Below are positions 1 through 17,184 of a stretch of DNA of 64,000 nt, in pieces; positions within the stretch are counted from its first letter, which is position 1; each line of letters starts with the position of its first letter. This stretch comes from Dictyostelium discoideum. Its lineage: Eukaryota. The translations under genes were made by a program, and so were the position numbers. The notes under the pieces were generated by a model, which did no database searches, had not been told where the DNA came from, and saw only the letters and a program-made list of their open reading frames with translations. The DNA is taken from the NCBI GenBank assembly GCA_000004695.1, contig CM000151.3, positions 7,584,001 through 7,648,000 on the forward strand, in the 5' to 3' direction.

Positions 1-583
1 AAAATTAATTTAAAAACATTAAATATTATTAAATTTTATTAATAATAAAACACGAAAAATACTAATAATTAATAAAACTAATAAAAGAATTATTTATAAA
101 TTACCACCAATGATTGAAACCGAATTGATAATTTTCTTTTTTAAACATTTTTATGGAGATAAAAAAAAAAATAAAAAAAAAAAAAAAAATAAAAAAAAAA
201 TATAAAAAAAACAGATATAAAATAGAACAAATAAGAAAAAAAAAAATTAATTAATTAATTAAAATAATGAAAAAGTGTTTTTAAAAAAATGACAAAGTGT
301 TTTTGTTTTAATTATGATAAATTAATATTATTTTAGATATATTTTTTTTATTTTTTTAATTTCAATTTAAATTACAAATCATACATTATATTGTTCATCA
401 GTTGAATTTTCTTACATAATTGCATAAACATCTTGCATAAATAATTAAAAATAAATAAAAAAACAAAAAGTGTACACATTGTGATTTTAAATTTTAAATC
501 TTTATTTAATTTTATTTTATTTTATTTTATTTATTTTTTTCTTTAATTATTAAAAGTTTATCCAATTAGGATAGAATTAAAAA

Positions 584-690
584 TTGCAGGCCGAATTGTT
601 TCGGACTGCGTTGTGGAATAGTTTGCAAAAAGCACTAACAGTGGATCCCTTATCGGTCACGCCCTACTGCTTTGGTCCCAGCGTAAAGAC
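584..690 (-). ncRNA. candidate small structured ncRNA: a roughly 105-nt GC-rich island in an otherwise more than 85% AT intergenic region; class unknown
   Basis: Seen in sequence: tgcaggccgaattgtttcggactgcg...ggatcccttatcggtcacgccctactgctttggtcccagcgtaaagac is about 50% GC, versus surrounding DNA under 15% GC. It contains a clean hairpin (CCGAA-ttgt-TTCGG flanked by GCAG/CTGC). On the minus strand the RNA would end in AATTTTTAATT (T-run, + 574-585). A CCCATAA box (revcomp of + 747-753 ttatggg) sits about 60 bp upstream of the minus-strand 5' end. That matches the Dictyostelium upstream sequence element (DUSE, [A/T]CCCA[C/T]AA at about -60) known from Dictyostelium snRNA and Class I RNA genes. 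Plus-strand alternative: the sequence ends ...AGACAAAA (ACA-like). No match to U1/U2/U5/U6 motifs that I can recall. Confidence 0.35.
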
Positions 691-746
691 AAAATAAAAA
701 AATCCTTCTAAATCTTAATAAATATTATCATTTGTTAATATTATTG

Positions 747-753
747 TTATGGG
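747..753 (-). promoter_or_regulatory. DUSE-like box (CCCATAA) about 60 bp upstream of the candidate ncRNA 5' end
   Basis: The heptamer matches the Dictyostelium ncRNA upstream element consensus. An AT-rich TATA-like stretch lies at about -30 (+ 712-728). Confidence 0.3.
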
Positions 754-1020
754 CAATTTCCCTATAATAAAATTTTCAATAATTGAATTATTTACAACAA
801 TAGGAACAATATTAATTAAAGGGTTATATAAAAATAAAAAATTCTAAAGTAAATTTTTAAAAAAAAAAAAAATAAAAAAAAAAAATAAAAATTTTTCAAA
901 AAGTTTATTTATTTTTATTAAAAATAAAATTATATTTGAACCTAAAGTTGAAGTACAAGTTGGTTTTGAAATTTAACTAAAAAAAAAAAAAAAAAAATGT
1001 TTGTGATTATTCAATTGTTT

Positions 1021-1240: not shown

Positions 1241-1882
1241 ATGGCAACAATCTTTGATATTTTAAATACTCATAATAATAATAATAATTTTGAAAATTGT
1301 AAAAGACAATGCTCAACCAATAAAAGCAATAAAACGATAATTGATATACTACCATCAATGGATGTAACAATGACAAATGATAAACTAATCATTGAAACAG
1401 AGTTAGCAGGTATTTCAAAAGATCATATTGAAATTGACATTAAAGATTCAATACTCACTATTTAAGGTGAAAAGAAAAAGAATTTAAATAAACAACAACA
1501 ACAACAACAACAACAAAAACAATTAGTTATTGAAAAATCAACATCATCAACAACATCATTAGATAGAAAAGAAGATGAAGCATCAATTGAAGAGTTTGAA
1601 GATGATATTAAACCAAAATCAAAATCTGATAATACAACTGTATCTACAGCCACCACCACCACTAAAGAGAACAAAGAAGACGAAAATAAAACAAAATCAA
1701 CTGATAAAAAGTTTATTTCAGAAAGATCATTTGGTAATTTTAAAAGATATTTAGATTTAACAAAAATTTTATATCAATTAGATTTAAATTCAATCAATAC
1801 TCAATTTGAAAATGGTTTATTAACAATTACAATCAATAAGAAATTACATTATTCAAATACAATTAAAATTAATATAAATTAA
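1241..1882 (+). pseudogene. small heat-shock protein (alpha-crystallin/Hsp20 family, hspG-like) copy 1, with an in-frame TAA at 1463-1465
   Basis: ORF 1241-1465 (MATIFDIL...DIKDSILTI*) continues in the same frame after the TAA through ...[39 protein letters not shown] to a stop at 1880-1882. The alpha-crystallin-domain signature is intact (IxxxGExK ... FxRxxxLP ... NGxLxIxxPK-like). Copy 2 has CAA (Gln) where copy 1 has TAA. It is either a nonsense allele/pseudogene or a sequencing error. Confidence 0.55.
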
Positions 1883-4266: not shown

Positions 4267-4516
4267 ATGGCAACAATCTTTGATATTTTAAATACTCTTA
4301 ATAATAATAATTTTGAAAATTGTAAAAGACAATGCTCAACCAATAAAAGCAATAAAACAATTATTGATATACTACCACCAATGGATGTAACAATTACAAA
4401 TGATAAACTAATCATTGAAACAGAGTTAGCAGGTATTTCAAAAGATCAAATTGAAATTGACATTAAAGATTCAATACTCACTATTCAAGGTGAAAGAAAA
4501 GATTTAAATAAACAAC

Positions 4517-4554
<38 letters not shown>

Positions 4555-4916
4555 TTAGTTATAGAAAAATCAACATCAACATCATCAACTTTTAGATAGA
4601 AAAGAAGATGAAGCATCAATTGAAGAAGTTTGAAGATGATATTAAACCAAAATCAAAATCTGACAACAGAACTGTATCTACTACAACCACCGCTACTAAA
4701 GAGAATAAAGAAGATGAAAATAAAACAAAATCAAGTGATAAAAAGTTTATTTCAGAAAGATCATTTGGTAATTTTAAAAGATATTTAGATTTAACAAAAG
4801 TTTTATATCAATTAGATTTATATTCAATCAATACTCAATTTGAAAATGGTTTATTAACAATTACAATCAATAAGAAATTACATTATTCAAATACAATTAA
4901 AATTAATATAAATTAA
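4267..4916 (+). pseudogene. small heat-shock protein (alpha-crystallin/Hsp20, hspG-like) copy 2, two frameshifts
   Basis: ORF 4267-4599 matches copy 1, then a 4-bp insertion (catcaACTTttagatag vs catcattagatag) and an extra A (gaagaAgtttgaa) move the frame twice. The C-terminal half (…[39 protein letters not shown]) is read in ORF 4608-4916. It is about 90% nt identical to copy 1. Confidence 0.5.
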
Positions 4917-5218: not shown

Positions 5219-7516
5219 TTATTTGTTAATTTTTTTTAACTTGTTTAAAAGAACACTTTCACCTTTTTTACGATAAATTAAAAAACCAATTGCACCAATT
5301 GCGGAAACACCAACAACACTTGCAACTACAGCGACTGGGATAACATAACTTTTTCTTCCATCTTTTGAATTACCACATTCATTTTTAAATTCTGGACTAA
5401 TTAAGACTGAGAAATCTGGATCAATGATACAAGATTCAATGCAATGTGGTAAATCTAATGAAATTGAAATTGAATCCTTACTTTCATTTTTCATTGAAGT
5501 TAATAAATATGTTGGTCTTCCGTCTGAAACTAACTTGTTTATAAATCTTCCTTCTAAAATTTTATTATTTTTTGAAATTTTAATATAATTGAAAGTAGAT
5601 TCACCATCTTTATTATTGATTGTATTAATTGATGTATCCATTTCATTACATTCATTATCATCTGAATTTATTTGATCTACTGATGAAACTAATTCTAATT
5701 TTAAAGTATTTAAGTTATTTTTGTATGAATAGTTATAAATTCCAATACTAAATTTAATTGAACCATATTGTAAATTAAATGTTTCATCTGCAAATGTATA
5801 TTCTTTACCATTTCTGTTTGTAATTTCTTCAATCTTTGAAATAATTGAGCAATTGCTTTGAATTGTTTGAGATAATGTGTAAATAATTTCATTTTTGCTG
5901 TTTGTTGAATTTGTTGTCCAATTGTTTCGAAGAGAATATGTTGCTACTATATTACCATTAAAATCAATTTCGTATAATGATTTGAAAAAGATTTGGAATT
6001 GAACTTCTTGATTTGAAATTGTTGTATTACCAGTACCTGGATCGACACCAGTATCAGTTGGTGGGTTTCCGTTATTACCTCCATCGCTATCGCTATTGCT
6101 TCCTCCGTTATTACCTCCGCCTGGATTAATGATACCACTACAATCTGCACCATTGAATCCATTATTACATTTACATTGACCATTTAAAGTATTGCATGTA
6201 CCTTGATTTGAACATTTATTTGGACATGTTTGGTTATTAATATTTAAATATTGATATTTATCATAAGAGTATGTAATGTTATTTTGAGTTACAACTACAA
6301 GCTTTACACCAAAACCTGGAGGTGCTGTACAATTTAAAACTGTTGTTGAATTATATAGTAATGGACATGGTAAATTTCCAATTGTGATTGATAGATTATT
6401 ATGAGTATCACCAAAGAAGCCAATAAAGCTTGCAACACCACCATTGGTTGTTGAAGGTATTGTTGAAGTTATATAATGGTATGGTATTAAACAAGTTGGA
6501 CCTGACCAAGAATTTTCTTTACAATTGCATTCACCTTTAGTTGTGTCACATACACCATTTGAATTACAATCTAGTGGATCACACTCAATAAATAATATTG
6601 AACAATCACTACCTCGATGAGATGAATCACAAATACATTCACCTATGGTAGTATTGCAATAACCATTACCTGAACAATCTGGAACTGAACATTCAATACC
6701 TAAGCAATCACTACCTATAAATCCTGGTAAACATTTACAAGTACCTGAACTTAAATCGCAAATTGAATTAACTCCAACTGATGTTGAACAATCATTTGGA
6801 CAAACTTGATTATTATCGAAATTTGATTCGATCTTAATATATGCTTTTACATTGAATGAATCTTTTTCAATTGAAATTATTTGTAATGGAATTGTTGAAT
6901 TTGAAATTGGTAATTGTTTACCACTTTCCATTGTACATTGTGCTCCGAAAAAGTCACTACTTGTAATTGTTGAACAATTACCTACATTTTGAATTTGAAC
7001 TTGTTGATTTGTAAATCCTAAATAACTTGAAAAATGTGTACCACTTACTTGAATTTCATTACCTGTGCTTTTAATTAAAACTGATTTTATAATTGGTGGA
7101 ATATTATAATTTGTTGGGAATGTATATGTAACATTATTTGGAGTTGTGAATAAAACTGGAAAATATTCAACATTTTTCAAATTATTATTAGCTCCTACCA
7201 TTGTTGCTGTATAATTTTTACCATTTTGATTAATAACATATGTTGTTGGATCTAATGAAATTGTTAAATTAATTTTCCATAATGTTACATCGAATCCAAT
7301 ATCATTACCAGTTACCATTACTTTATTAAATATACCATCATTAATTAATTCTACTTTTGGTCTAAATGTTGTGCATGGTGTATTTGTATTAAAGTTTGAA
7401 AACTTATTACTAGCAAATCTTGAAAACATTGATTTTTGTGTTAATTTTGAATAACTATTTACTGTTGTTACATTAAAATAACATGCAAAACAAGATGGAA
7501 CTAATCTGAATATTTG

Positions 7517-7583
<67 letters not shown>

Positions 7584-9090
7584 ATTAATAAAAATAAGAA
7601 TTATGATAATAAAGAAATAATAATTAAAACCATACCCTGTTAAATTTCCCAGTGAAACAGCTATTTCAGTTGTGCACCATGATTTATCAATTGTGCCAGT
7701 AAATTTGGTTGTTCCTGTAAAATCAAATGAACCACCAGAACCTAAAAAAGGAGGGAATTGTTCACTTTTTATTGAATTTTGAAAATTTGTTGTAATATCT
7801 GGATTAAAATTTAGATTGTTTGGGAAAACTGTTAAATAACCTCCTATAAAGGATATTTCAATATTCTTTGGAACAATTAAGGGAAATGATCCATTGATAT
7901 TAAATGATGTCCCAGGAACCAATGTAATGGATTTATAAGTGTGGTTTTTAAATAATGTTATATCAAAGAATTCCTTTGGTTTCTTGAATATTGCTGAAAC
8001 ATATATATAAGGAATAATAGAATTATCAAATATATATTGATCTAATGTAGCATTTTGATTGAATGTATCATAGATTGTTAGCATTCCTGATTGATCAGTA
8101 ATTTGTAATTTCTTTAAAAATGAAATAGTTGAGTAATCAAATCTTGGAGAAATTTTAAATGTAACACCTCTTAATTTTTTATAACTTGATAAATCTGATA
8201 TACTATTCAAAGAAATTCTAAAATTTGTTAAGATTGATGATTCATCTGAATTTGCTCCATCTGTATTTAAATAATAATAACTATCAGATGAAAACATATT
8301 TAATGAATATGTAACTTTATCTAAATACTGCATTCTAAATATTGTATTATTTAAGTCATCGCTAAATAATTCACTTAAAATTATTTATTTTTGAAAAAAT
8401 TAAAATTATTTTAATATTATATATATATATATCTATGTATTAACATATAAAACAAAAATTATATTTTACATTAATCTATATGCAGGTAGAGGTTGTGTAA
8501 TTCCACCTAATATTCCAGAAATATTTGAATACCTTACTGTATTGGCAGCTGGAAATTTGTAATATATAAAATTTGGGGTCACTTTTAAATTTTTAACTAT
8601 TCTAAAATTATTATTTAATTACTATTAATATATTTTTTGGAATTATTTTTGACTAAAAAAAAAAAAAAAAACATACAATTCATCCATTTGAGGAAAGCAA
8701 TTTACAAAATTTAATGGGTCTAATATATTATCTGTTCCACCACTATTCAAAGCTAATCTAAAAAAAAAATAAAAAAAAAAAAAAAATAAAAAATTATTAG
8801 TTAATAATTTAAAAAAATCTAATTATTATATTTTAAATAAAAAAAATGAAATAAAAATAATTAATTTACGTTTTAATATTTAGATTGGTCGTGCAAACTA
8901 TATCAGTATTAGCGGTTGTACATATATCAACATATTGGTTATTGGTATCTTTGGTGAATTTTAAAAGGTTATAATCTTGTATCAATGTTGACAAACAATT
9001 ATATTCACTCGGAATAGGATTGACTGATAAACAACCAATAAAATTTAAAAATATTAAAAAAAGTAGTAATTTAAATTTTAACGAAATCAT
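5219..9090 (-). CDS. gene A: secreted/type-I membrane protein with IPT/TIG domain, EGF-like Cys repeats, one C-terminal TM helix and a short basic tail; 5 exons, about 1152 aa
   Basis: Exons (minus): 9090..8870 (MISLKFKLLLFLIFLNFIGCLSVNPIPSEYNC..., signal peptide; donor GTAAAT), 8757..8677 (…LALNSGGTDNILDPLNFVNCFPQMDE; donor GTATGT), 8601..8470 (…IVKNLKVTPNFIYYKFPAANTVRYSNISGILGGITQPLPAYRL; donor GTAAAA), 8373..7636 (ORF 7473-8333 region; donor GTATGG), 7505..5219 (ORF 5219-7429 extended upstream to the acceptor tattcag). All phases are consistent (2/1 across every intron). Domain calls: PPIIKSVLIKSTGNEIQVSGTHF is TIG-like; CxCxxGFxGxDC repeats are EGF-like; SYVIPVAVVASVVGVSAIGAIGFLIYRKKGE is a TM helix plus stop-transfer. 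Confidence 0.75.
7521..7581. repeat. A61 homopolymer inside intron 4 of gene A
   Basis: 61 consecutive A on the + strand. The intron runs 7635..7506. Confidence 0.95.
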
Positions 9091-9643: not shown

Positions 9644-12600
9644 TTATTTGTTAATTTTTTTTAACTTGTTTAAAAGAACACTTTCACCTTTTTTACGATA
9701 AATTAAAAAACCAATTGCACCAATTGCGGAAACACCAACAACACTTGCAACTACAGCGACTGGGATAACATAACTTTTTCTTCCATCTTTTGAATTACCA
9801 CATTCATTTTTAAATTCTGGACTAATTAAGACTGAGAAATCTGGATCAATGATACAAGATTCAATGCAATGTGGTAAATCTAATGAAATTGAAATTGAAT
9901 CCTTACTTTCATTTTTCATTGAAGTTATTAAATATGTTGGTCTTCCGTCTGAAACTAACTTGTTTATAAATCTTCCTTCTAAAATTTTATTATTTTTTGA
10001 AATTTTAATATAGTTGAAAGTAGATTCACCATCTTTATTATTGATTGTATTAATTGATGTATCCATTTCATTACATTCATTATCATCTGAATTTATTTGA
10101 TCTACTGATGAAACTAATTCTAATTTTAAAGTATTTAAATTATTTTTGTATGAATAGTTATGAATTCCAATACTAAATTTAATTGAACCATATTGTAAAT
10201 TAAATGTTTCATCTGCAAATGTATATTCTTTACCATTTCTGTTTGTAATTTCTTCAATCTTTGAAATAATTGAGCAATTGCTTTGAATTGTTTGAGATAA
10301 TGTGTAAATAATTTCATTTTCGGTATCTGTTGAGTTTGTTGTCCAACTGTTTTGAAGAGAATATGTTGCTACTATATTACCATTAAAATCAATTTCGTAT
10401 AATGATTTGAAAAAGATTTGGAATTGAACTTCTTGATTTGAAATTGTTGTATTACCAGTACCTGGATCGACACCAGTATCAGTTGGTGGGTTTCCGTTAT
10501 TACCTCCATCGCTATCGCTATTGCTTCCTCCGTTATTACCTCCGCCTGGATTAATGATACCACTACAATCTGCACCATTGAATCCATTATTACATTTACA
10601 TTGACCATTTAAAGTATTGCATGTACCTTGATTTGAACATTTATTTGGACATGTTTGATTGTTAATATTTAAATATTGATATTTATTATAAGAGTATGTA
10701 ATGTTATTTTGAGCTACAACTACAAGCTTTACACCAAAACCTGGAGGTGCTGTACAATTTAAAACTGTTGTTGAATTATATAGTAATGGACATGGTAAAT
10801 TTCCAATTGTGATTGATAGATTATTATGAGTATCACCAAAGAAGCCAATAAAGCTTGCAACACCACCATTGGTTGTTGAAGGTATTGTTGAAGTTATATA
10901 ATGGTATGGTATTAAACAAGTTGGACCTGACCAAGAATTTTCTTTACAATTGCATTCACCTTTAATTGTATCACACACACCGTTTGAATTACAATCTACT
11001 GGATCACAATCAATATATGGTAATGAACAGTCACTACCTTGATTTGAAGGTCCACAATCACAAGTACCAGTTTGATTATTACATGTATTTAAACCACCAT
11101 TACATGCTACCCCAGTAGTCATTGGACATTCAACAAATGGTACTGAGCAATCATTTCCTTGGTGAGATGAATCACAATTACAAATACCAGTTTCATTATT
11201 ACATGTATTTAAACCACCATTGCATGGTAATCCATTAGATTCTGGACAATCAATTACTGGTAATGAGCAATCACTTCCTTGGTGAGATGAATCACAATTA
11301 CAAGTACCAGTTTGATTATTACATGTATTTAAACCACCATTACATGGCAATCCATTAGATGTTGGGCAATCAATTACTGGCAATGAGCAATCACTACCTT
11401 GATTTGAAGGTCCACAATCACAAGTACCAGTTTGATTATTACATGTATTTAAACCACCGTTACATGGTAATGAACTGAATATTGGACATGGAACCAATGG
11501 CAATGAGCAATTACTTCCTTGAAACGATGAGCTACAATTACAAGTACCAGTTTGGTTATTACATGTATTTAAACCACCGTTACATGGTAATCCACTAACT
11601 ATTGGGCATTCAATCAATGGTAATGAGCAATCACTTCCTTGGTGAGATGAATCACAACCACAAGTACCAGTTTGATTATTACAAGTGTTTAGACCGCCGT
11701 TACATGGTAATCCACTAACAATTGGGCATTCAATCAATGGTAATGAGCAATCATTTCCTTGGTGAGATGAATCACAACCACAAGTACCAGTTTTATTATT
11801 ACAAGTGTTTAAACCACCGTTACATGGTAATCCACTAACTATTGGGCATTCAATCAATGGTAATGAGCAATCATTTCCTTGGTGAGATGAATCACAAGTA
11901 CAAATACCAGTTTGATTATTACAAGTATTTGAGCCGCCATTACATGGTAAAGAGCCATAAATTGGACAAGGAATGAGTGGTAATAAACAATCGCTACCTT
12001 GATAAGATGAATTACAAATACATTCACCTATGGTATAATCACAATGACCATTACCTGAACAATCTGGAACTGAACATTCAATACCTAAACAATCACTACC
12101 AACAAATCCTGGTAAACATTTACAAGCACCTGAACTTAAATCGCAAATTGAATTAACTCCAACTGATGTTGAACAATCATTTGGACAAACTTGATTATTA
12201 TCGAAATTTGATTCGATCTTAATATATGCTTTTACATTGAATGAATCTTTTTCAATTGAAATTATTTGTAATGGAATTGTTGAATTTGAAATTGGTAATT
12301 GTTTACCACTTTCCATTGTACATTGTGCTCCGAAAAAGTCACTACTTGTAATTGTTGAACAATTACCTACATTTTGAATTTGAACTTGTTGATTTGTAAA
12401 TCCTAAATAACTTGAAAAATGTGTACCACTTACTTGAATTTCATTACCTGTGCTTTTAATTAAAACTGATTTTATAATTGGTGGAATATTATAATTTGTT
12501 GGGAATGTATATGTAACATTATTTGGAGTTGTGAATAAAACTGGAAAATATTCAACATTTTTCAAATTATTATTAGCTCCTACCATTGTTGCTGTATAAT

Positions 12601-14450
12601 TTTTACCATTTTGATTAATAACATATGTTGTTGGATCTAATGAAATTGTTAAATTAATTTTCCATAATGTTACATCGAATCCAATATCATTACCAGTTAC
12701 CATTACTTTATTAAATATACCATCATTAATTAATTCTACTTTTGGTCTAAATGTTGTGCATGGTGTTTTTGTATTAAAGTTTGAAAACTTATTACCAGAA
12801 AATCTTGTCAACATTGATTTTTGTGTTAATTTTGAATAACTATTTATCGTTGTTACATTAAAATAACACGCAAAACAAGATGGAATTAATCTAAATTTTT
12901 AAATTAATAAAAAAAAATAAAGATTAGTAAGTAATTTGAATAAATAAATAATTTATAATCAACATACCCTGTTAAATTTCCAGTTGGGACAGATAGTTCA
13001 GTTGTGCACCATGAATTATCAACTGTACCAACAAAAAGATTTGGAGAATTTGTAAAATAATATGAACCACCAGAACCTAGAAATTTTGTGGGGAATTGTG
13101 TATTTTTTATTGAATTAAAGAAGGAAACTGTAGAATATGGACCCATATTAAGGTTATTTGGAAAAACCGTCAAGTTACCTGATAAAAAATTAAAATCACA
13201 ACTCTCTGGAGGAATTATTGGGAGTGCCCCATTCAAATGATAAAGATTTCCTGGAAAAAGGGTAATTGCTGTATAGGTGTGATTAACGAATGATGACATA
13301 TCATAATATTCAGTTGGTGCATCAAGTGTCGCACTTAGATAAAATTTTGATACTTTTGAATTGTCAAATAAATATTGATTAATTTGTCCAAGAGCACGGT
13401 ATATTGATAATTGATTGGATGATATTGTTTTCATAAAATTAATAGTTGAAAAATCAAATATTAGAGAAAATTGTAAATTTATATTGTTTAATTTGTACAT
13501 TGAAAAAGATACTATGTTATGTACATTGGCATAAAAATTCCCTAATACTGAGGTTCCAGATGGATTTGCGCCATCAGAGTTTAGATAAACATATACATTA
13601 GCAGGAGAAATGTCCAAATTATATATTCCACTATTAATATGCTCCAATCTCAATGTTGTACCATTTAAATCATTTGAATGTATAGTCCTTTTTATTTTTA
13701 AAATAAAAAAAAATAAAAAAAATAAAAAAAATAAAAAAATAAATAAATGAATAAAATTTATGTAAGAAATAAGAATTAGATTTTAGTTTTTTTTTTTTTT
13801 TTGTTTTTTTTTTTTTTATAGAAAATAAATATTTACAAGGATCTAATTGAAGGTAAAGGTTGAGTAATTCCACCTACCACTCCATTAATATTGATATACT
13901 TTGCTATTTGGACACTGGATATTTTTGTATATATAAAATCTGGTGATACTTTTAAATTATTAACCGTTCTTTAATAATAATAATTTTCAATTTTTTAGTA
14001 AATAATTTTGTTGAGAAAAAAAAAAAAAAAAAATTTAAAATACTTACAATTCCACCATCAGAGTAAAACAGGTTGAGAAATTAGATGGAAATAATATATT
14101 ATTTGTACCACCAGGTATTAAAAACCATCCTAAAAATAAAAAAATAAAAAAATAAAAATTTAATATTTATTAGTTTTGATATTAAATTAAAAAAAAAAAT
14201 TAAAAAATTAAAAAATTAAAATTAAACTTATTTCTTTTGAATATAAATTCCCAGAACAAGAAATATCAATTGTGGTGGTTGACAAATGTTTGAATAAAAA
14301 TCGAATGTGTCTTTTGTGAAATTTGGTAGAATAAAAATTTCATTTAAATAACCAACACGTATATTCATCTGGAACAAGAGGGGGGACTTGAGAATAACAC
14401 CCGACAATTATTAAAAATATAAAAAAAAGTTGAGATTTAATTAAAACCAT
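9644..14450 (-). CDS. gene B: tandem paralog of gene A (IPT/TIG + EGF-like repeat type-I membrane protein) with an expanded Cys-repeat array; 5' exon 1 appears decayed
   Basis: Exons (minus): 12890..9644 (1082 codons; ORF 9644-12814 extended to the acceptor aaatttag), 13687..12968 (donor GTATGT), 13968..13837 (…TVNNLKVSPDFIYTKISSVQIAKYININGVVGGITQPLPSIRSL; donor GTAAAT), 14129..14048 (GWFLIPGGTNNILFPSNFSTCFTLMVE; donor GTAAGT). Putative exon 1 is 14450..about 14235 (MVLIKSQLFFIFLIIVGCYSQVPPLVPDEYTCW...). Exon 1 has an in-frame TGA, a frameshift relative to gene A, no recognisable GT donor (GAAATAAGTTTAA where A has CGTAAATTAAT), and a phase mismatch with exon 2 (82 nt vs 81 nt in A). Confidence 0.6.
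11000..12000 (-). repeat. in-frame 120-bp (40-aa) tandem repeat array, about 8 copies, encoding CDSSHQG(N/S)DCSLPLIECPIVSGLPCNGGLNTCNNQTGTC units
   Basis: Consecutive copies are 90-100% identical at the nt level (e.g. 11161-11280 vs 11281-11400). The array is absent from gene A, which jumps from CICDSSHRGSDCSILFIECDPLDCNSNG directly to the shared C-terminal region. Confidence 0.85.
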
Positions 14451-16197: not shown

Positions 16198-17184
16198 ATG
16201 GTATGGAATAAAAAAAAAAAAAAAAAAATAATTATCATAAAATATATATATGTACTAATTTATTATTTATTAAAAATATATATAGGTAGAATTTACATTA
16301 TTAGAAGATGATGTTTATTTCCATGATTATATAGCAGATTTCATTCCTTTATTTGTATTATCAATTTTACTGGAATTTGTTATAAATGTATTTTTTAAAA
16401 AGAAAAAGAATTATCACTCATTAAGTGATTCATTAAGTAGTATGGGTACAGGTATATCAACAGTAGTTTTAGAAAGAATTGTACCATATACAATTTTATC
16501 ATCAATTGAATTTGTAGGTGCCGTATATATTTATAAACATTATAGATTTTTCGATGTTTCCGAATCTTCAATATTAGCCTGGATAATTTGTTTACTAGCT
16601 GTTGATTTTGTTTATTATTGTAAGTTTTTATATTTTTAAGTTTTTATATTTTTATATTTTTAATGAGGAAAAGAGTGTGTTGTGTGTTGTGATAATATAT
16701 ATAAATTACTAACACATATGTGTTTATTTTATTTTATTTTATTTTTTTTTTTAAAAAAAAAGGGTTTCATAGATTTGCACATGAAATTAATTTTATGTGG
16801 GCAACACATGTTACACATCATTCAAGTGATAAATATAATTTAACAACAGCATTAAGACAAAGTATATTTCAAATGTATTTCTCATGGGTATTATTTTTAC
16901 CAATTGGATTTTTCATACCACCAGGTATTTATGTATTTCATAAACAATTCAATACAATCAATCAATTTTGGATTCATACACAATTGATTGGTAAATTAGC
17001 ATGGCCAATTGAATTTATAATGAATACACCATCACATCATAGAGTTCATCATGGACGTAATCCAAAATATTTAGATAAAAACTATGCTGGTACATTAATA
17101 ATTTGGGATAGATTATTTGGAACATTCCAAGAGGAAGATACTATCACCAACACCACCACCACCACCACCAACACCACTGGTGAA

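Follow-up and report, generated by a model that had tools for sequence, protein, structure and literature searches.

A GC-rich island in AT-rich Dictyostelium discoideum DNA very probably marks a U4 spliceosomal RNA gene

Identification of the gene

A GC-rich island close to the start of a 64,000-nt stretch of DNA (the window, to which all positions refer) very probably belongs to a gene for the U4 spliceosomal snRNA of Dictyostelium discoideum AX4, read on the minus strand from 690 to 559. When positions 300-1000 were scanned against all 4227 Rfam families, a single significant match was returned—RF00015, U4 spliceosomal RNA, at 690..559 on the minus strand, with 52.3 bits (curated gathering score, 46 bits), an E value of 8.7e-11, and alignment over the full model (positions 1-138 of 138). 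At gathering thresholds, it is also the sole Rfam match in the whole 64 kb, where its E value is 8e-09; no tRNA genes were found in the scan. Membership in the U4 family is thus directly supported by the covariance model. As aligned, the gene is 132 nt long (559-690), and its real 3' end may lie a few nucleotides beyond 559. The organism is likewise directly supported—the minus-strand ORF at 5219-7426 was 100% identical in a homology search to DDB_G0276959 of D. discoideum AX4—and we take the window to lie on chromosome 2 of that strain.

A preliminary description, made from the sequence, had proposed a small non-coding RNA gene on the minus strand and had named an Rfam scan as a check; the RF00015 match at 690..559 bears out both the gene and its strand. 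Its reading of the RNA as novel, possibly an unannotated snoRNA, was wrong, given a match to U4 at 52.3 bits against a cut-off of 46 and a U4 already present in the literature and in GenBank. It had also found no landmarks of U1, U2, U5, or U6, which agrees with RF00015 being the only family matched, but U4 had been left out of that list.

The D. discoideum U4 was reportedly described by Hinas et al. in 2006 (Eukaryot Cell 5:924) under GenBank accession AY918063. A published table lists AY918063 as the U4 and AY953942 as the U6 of this species, secondary sources state that U1, U2, U4, U5, and U6 have all been identified in D. discoideum, and dictyBase holds 18 rnu genes. We infer that the locus is the U4 already described, the same as AY918063, and so a real but ordinary gene rather than a new RNA. 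A full-text search with 17-18-nt stretches of the U4 sequence, in DNA and in RNA letters, found no paper, and U4-specific patterns had no matches in two metagenome scans.

The island itself stands out as the preliminary description had stated. GC content is 49.5% across 584-690, compared to 11.5% for 1-558, 16.3% for 691-1200 (flanks of 11-16%), and 22.3% for the window as a whole; the island peaks at 51% GC, a value reached by only 0.08% of 100-nt segments in the 64 kb, of which the others are mostly coding. That no ORF of note covers it also holds: the ORFs overlapping the island are only 20-37 aa long, all with GTG or TTG starts, and are not meaningful for a eukaryote, while the lone ATG-initiated ORF nearby (32 aa, 749-847) lies outside. 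An extent of about 105 nt had been given for the RNA. The position was right, but the gene occupies 132 nt (559-690), longer than the island, and runs at its 3' side into AT-rich DNA. No second copy of the island sequence was found in the 64-kb window, in keeping with the expectation that it is not a fragment of a repeat or transposon.

Table 1. Features of the U4 locus, in window coordinates (nt, position in the RNA)
Feature	Position	Strand	Basis
U4 gene, 132 nt	559..690	-	Rfam RF00015
nt 1-16, GUCUUUACGCUGGGAC, single-stranded 5' end, partner in U4/U6 stem II	675..690	-	unpaired 5' positions of Rfam model
nt 21-53, 5' stem-loop with K-turn	638..670	-	Rfam alignment and coordinates
nt 57-65, UGCUUUUUG, stem I region	626..634	-	aligns to UGCUAGUUG of Rfam consensus
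nt 81-105, central stem-loop	586..610	-	Rfam alignment and fold; -11.1 kcal/mol folded alone
nt 106-114, AAUUUUUAA, predicted Sm-protein binding site	577..585	-	aligns to AAUUUUUGG of Rfam U4 model with high posterior probability
nt 118-132, 3' terminal hairpin UAUCC-UAAUU-GGAUA	559..573	-	Rfam alignment and fold
DUSE box, 8-mer GCCCATAA, core CCCATAA at 753..747	747..754	-	motif search, distance to 690

Architecture of the RNA

The landmarks of U4 follow one another in canonical order—K-turn, central hairpin, Sm site, and 3' hairpin—and are directly supported by the alignment (Table 1). In the 5' stem-loop, the Rfam alignment places a lower stem of GCAGU/ACUGU followed by a GGG/UCC stem, the latter belonging to a K-turn at 664..643, GGG-CGU-GA-CC-GAUAA-GG-GA-UCC. 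Besides the GGG/UCC stem, this K-turn has a 3-nt bulge (CGU) and tandem G.A/A.G pairs, and a short CC/GG stem in it is capped by the GAUAA pentaloop. Human U4 is laid out alike, with an AAU bulge, GA/GA, a GG/CC stem, and a UUUAU pentaloop. We regard the K-turn as a putative binding site for Snu13/15.5K, which would be expected here; a K-turn has been reported in all U4 and U4atac RNAs (PMC2396436). Downstream, a conserved AAACUAUUCC stretch is aligned between the stem I segment and the central hairpin. The latter is shorter here than in the U4 consensus, and corresponds to a local hairpin that had been noticed beforehand, GCAGGCCGAA-UUGU-UUCGGACUGC, which we recovered at 586-609 with 9/10 pairs, one internal mismatch, and a minus-strand energy of -11.1 kcal/mol.

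The predicted Sm site, with the pattern A U4-6 G/A, is flanked by the central and terminal hairpins (610..586 and 573..559), the second of which sits in AT-rich DNA outside the GC island. This bears on the T-run that had been taken for a pol III-type terminator on the minus strand: the run AATTTTTAA is indeed present, at 585..577, but it aligns to the Sm site (AAUUUUU), and the RNA continues beyond it to about 559.

Folding of both strands, also put forward as a check in the preliminary description, recovered hairpins but gave weak statistics. The minus-strand minimum free energy (MFE) fold contains both downstream hairpins, central and 3', along with some of the 5' stem-loop; MFE z-scores for the whole RNA, at -1.44 and -1.34 on the two strands, are weak both ways, so that thermodynamic folding alone singles out neither region nor strand and it is the covariance model that carries the identification as U4.

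Predicted pairing with U6

The segments that would pair with U6 depart from the eukaryote-wide U4 consensus—UUUACGCUGGG here compared to UUUGCGCAGGG in stem II, and UGCUUUUUG compared to UGCUAGUUG in stem I—and these departures would require matching changes in the U6 of D. discoideum. As a proxy for the partner, we used the human U6 sequence, which is heterologous to D. discoideum. With nt 59-85 of this human U6, the 5' 20 nt pair in the register that human U4 uses, leaving 2 internal mismatches. For stem II, the energy against this proxy was -15.8 kcal/mol, compared to -8.9 +/- 2.7 for shuffled sequences, of which 1.6% did equally well or better. For stem I, the proxy energy of -7.1 kcal/mol was reached by 24% of shuffles, and beyond the UGCU/AGCA core, pairing was no better than chance.

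Stem II is known to covary between lineages, for example, between yeast and human, and because of this covariation specific compensating bases can be predicted for the D. discoideum partner from the two mismatches with human U6 (A7 opposite C, and U11 opposite U). From this comparison, D. discoideum U6 is predicted to carry U opposite U4 A7 and A opposite U4 U11, roughly 5'-CCCAGCGUAAAGA-3' in place of the human CCCCUGCGCAAGG. For stem I pairing with UGCUUUUUG, the stretch preceding AGCA in this U6 should likewise be rich in A.

By homology with U4 of other eukaryotes, a working scheme for the locus can be proposed, in which its expression, the type of cap, the polymerase, and pairing with U6 of the same species would all be as for U4 elsewhere. 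RNA polymerase II would presumably transcribe the gene, starting about 63 nt past the DUSE, and an Sm ring would assemble on AAUUUUUAA between the central and 3' hairpins. Snu13 (15.5K) would bind the K-turn of the 5' stem-loop and, through it, Prp31 would be recruited, while the 5' end and the UGCU region would pair with U6 to form stems II and I. U6 would then be brought to the spliceosome in inactive form within the U4/U6.U5 tri-snRNP, and upon activation U4 would be unwound and released. The product would be a stable nuclear RNA with a trimethylguanosine cap, about 132-136 nt long (within the 130-145 nt or so expected of U4) and ending just past the 3' hairpin rather than at the T-run.

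Upstream promoter box

The preliminary description had pointed to CCCATAA about 60 bp upstream as a match to the DUSE element, and this proved correct—the core lies on the minus strand at 753..747, with its first C at -63 relative to the predicted 5' end (G at 690), a distance that is directly supported. The DUSE, [AT]CCCA[AT]AA, precedes many ncRNA genes of D. discoideum by about 63 bp, snRNA and Class I genes included (PMC3188802; PMC7919456), and in D. purpureum every spliceosomal RNA gene has one upstream (PMC3188802); it accompanies genes of either polymerase, pol II or pol III (PMC7919456). Counting the two strands together, the 64 kb contain 15 occurrences of CCCAWAA, fewer than in shuffled sequences, and only the one upstream of U4 precedes a GC-rich island. 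From these 15 occurrences, we estimate a probability of about 1e-3 that the motif would fall by chance on the correct strand and no more than 5 nt to either side of -63. The 8-mer GCCCATAA departs in a minor way from the published consensus, starting with G instead of A or T; because of this first base, a strict scan for the [AT]CCCA[AT]AA 8-mer misses the genuine snRNA promoter at 747-754, which was found by searching for the 7-mer core.

In full-length architecture, in the DUSE about 63 nt upstream, and in organism, the locus is the same as known U4 (RF00015; D. discoideum U4 AY918063). It shares with the other DUSE-driven Dictyostelium ncRNA genes (U1, U2, U5, U6, Class I, and Class II) the same box at about -60 and the form of a compact GC-rich island in AT-rich intergenic DNA. 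In contrast, the body of the RNA is unlike theirs, having neither a Class I 5' stem nor a CCTTACAGCAA-type motif and matching no other snRNA model. Class I and Class II RNAs, defined by a 5' GTTGA or GCTCG stem together with a conserved CCTTACAGCAA-type motif and a length of 50-60 nt, were considered as candidates and rejected, as CCTTACAG and CTTACAGC are absent from the window and the RNA measures 132 nt rather than the 50-60 nt expected.

For annotation, the practical lesson is that a GC-rich island of 100-130 nt lying about 63 nt past CCCA[AT]AA in the AT-rich DNA of dictyostelids reliably indicates a small-RNA gene, that such islands warrant an Rfam check ahead of any call of novelty, and that a T-run within one can be an Sm site rather than a terminator. 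The significance of the present case is mostly one of annotation hygiene, given that U4 is a core component of the spliceosome and that its gene has been known in D. discoideum since 2006.

Comparison with other strains and relatives

To place the locus among relatives, we compared regions around orthologues of the neighbouring ComC/EGF gene in six assemblies. The first (L001) is another D. discoideum strain, 99.28% identical over 19.1 kb (78 mismatches, 24 gaps), in which U4 and its flanks are identical at 281/281 positions and the Rfam score is again 52.3 bits; identity with a second strain is thus directly supported. In a D. cf. discoideum assembly (L005, GCA_054859205.1), an orthologous copy lies at 16991-17118 on the plus strand, with 91% identity over the aligned 281-nt stretch including flanks. 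This copy keeps the DUSE (CCCCATAA, at -62, the first position of the 8-mer again being neither A nor T), the K-turn, the Sm site, and the 3' hairpin, and the sole substitution in a paired position of its 5' stem, C22 to U, leaves pairing in place (C-G to U.G). Its 5' end, however, is shortened and altered relative to AX4, from GUCUUUACGCUGGGAC to GUCAUUGGGAC, with 4-5 nt lost and 2 nt changed in the part that pairs with U6; the central hairpin is less stable (-4.0 kcal/mol, compared to -11.1 in AX4), and at 38.5 bits the copy falls short of the Rfam cut-off of 46. This snRNA gene copy is probably decaying, or it may possibly be a U4 variant.

The remaining four assemblies (L002, L003, L004, and L006, representing D. 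firmibasis, D. citrinum, and another two genomes of the D. discoideum group) showed no U4 in the 10 kb downstream of the ComC orthologue, with the qualification that the array in L004 is longer and that U4 could sit there past the end of the compared region. Conservation at the syntenic position, one of the checks suggested beforehand, therefore gave a divided answer—the gene is intact in the second D. discoideum strain, but decayed in D. cf. discoideum and not found in the flanks of the other four. Genomes that have no U4 at the syntenic flank must carry one elsewhere.

The U4 locus lies inside a tandem array of HSP20 and GNAT genes whose copy number and order vary between strains. Because the structure of this array differs between strains, and because the gene is decayed in L005 and absent from four syntenic flanks, we consider the locus evolutionarily labile, either lineage-restricted or moved, and the AX4 locus need not be the sole or main U4 gene. 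Turnover of the locus between strains is a minor point for the evolution of snRNA genes.

Alternative explanations

The comparison with relatives raises two related readings of the locus. One is that it is a young, lineage-restricted snRNA gene copy within a fast-evolving HSP20/GNAT array, whose shortened form would constitute a U4 variant if expressed; we hold this to be unlikely, and a simple decaying duplicate is the more probable account of the shortened copy than an expressed variant. Divergent U2 variants are already known in Dictyostelium, and if the L005 copy were expressed, it would be comparable to them as a U4 variant with altered U6 pairing. The other, which we think quite improbable, is that the AX4 locus is itself a pseudogene or a silent extra copy, with the functional U4 elsewhere in the genome. 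The state of the L005 orthologue speaks for it, with its damaged U6-pairing 5' end, weakened central stem, and sub-cut-off score, as do the missing locus in the syntenic flanks of L002, L003, L004, and L006 and the position in an HSP20/GNAT array that differs between strains. Yet the AX4 copy scores above the Rfam gathering score with every landmark intact, the DUSE core stands exactly at -63, so that the copy is no promoter-less retro-copy, and the sequence is 100% identical in a second strain despite 0.7% divergence nearby.

The remaining explanations would take the island out of the U4 family altogether. A new, unannotated small RNA, snoRNA or other, transcribed by pol III and ending at the T-run, would be compatible with the run of five Ts and with a DUSE, which in Dictyostelium is found ahead of pol III genes and Class I RNAs as well (PMC7919456). 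This reading is already refuted by the covariance-model match, and we give it next to no credence: in the alignment the T-run corresponds to the U4 Sm site, with the 3' hairpin required by the model coming after it, no snoRNA or other family was matched in 300-1000 even at E <= 10, the 132-nt RNA has neither CUGA (D box) nor RUGAUGA (C box), and the window contains neither of the Class I motifs, CCTTACAG and CTTACAGC. U4atac, the minor-spliceosome counterpart, has the same K-turn and Sm architecture and belongs to the same Rfam clan, CL00007, but U4 was the match kept as the best among overlapping members of that clan, and minor-spliceosome RNAs have not been found in Dictyostelium (PMC2396436), so the probability of this assignment is negligible. 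Equally negligible is an origin as a piece of a repeat or transposon, such as TRE or DIRS, or as a patch GC-rich by chance, a reading for which we found no support—the island is single-copy in the 64 kb, the intergenic DNA on either side of it is unique and is conserved in L001 and L005, and the structured-RNA match (E = 9e-11) speaks against a chance patch.

Identification as U4 leaves an earlier impression of a snoRNA to be accounted for. Box C/D snoRNAs likewise have a K-turn bound by Snu13/15.5K, and this shared element may explain that impression, but U4 here differs from them in having neither terminal C/D boxes nor guide architecture. Box C/D and H/ACA snoRNAs were both rejected as candidates, there being no CUGA and no UGAUGA in the 132 nt and no snoRNA family at E <= 10.

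Neighbouring genes

Several genes around the locus show features of their own. The HSP20-family gene adjoining U4 (1241-1882, plus strand) is interrupted by an in-frame TAA (…DSILTI*GEKKK…) at a position occupied by Q in the paralogue at 4267; the same TAA is present in L001, so this is probably a pseudogene common to both strains. That paralogue (4267-4916, plus strand) falls into two ORFs because of frameshifts within a CAA/AAC repeat and past its end, while its counterpart in L001 is an intact 216-aa ORF, and the split is either a true strain difference or the result of reference errors at repeats. Further along, tandem ComC/EGF-repeat genes on the minus strand, at 5219-8333 and 9644-12814, are nearly identical in their N- and C-terminal parts, with different numbers of EGF-like repeats; the pair suggests a recent tandem duplication, and relatives have two or three such genes.
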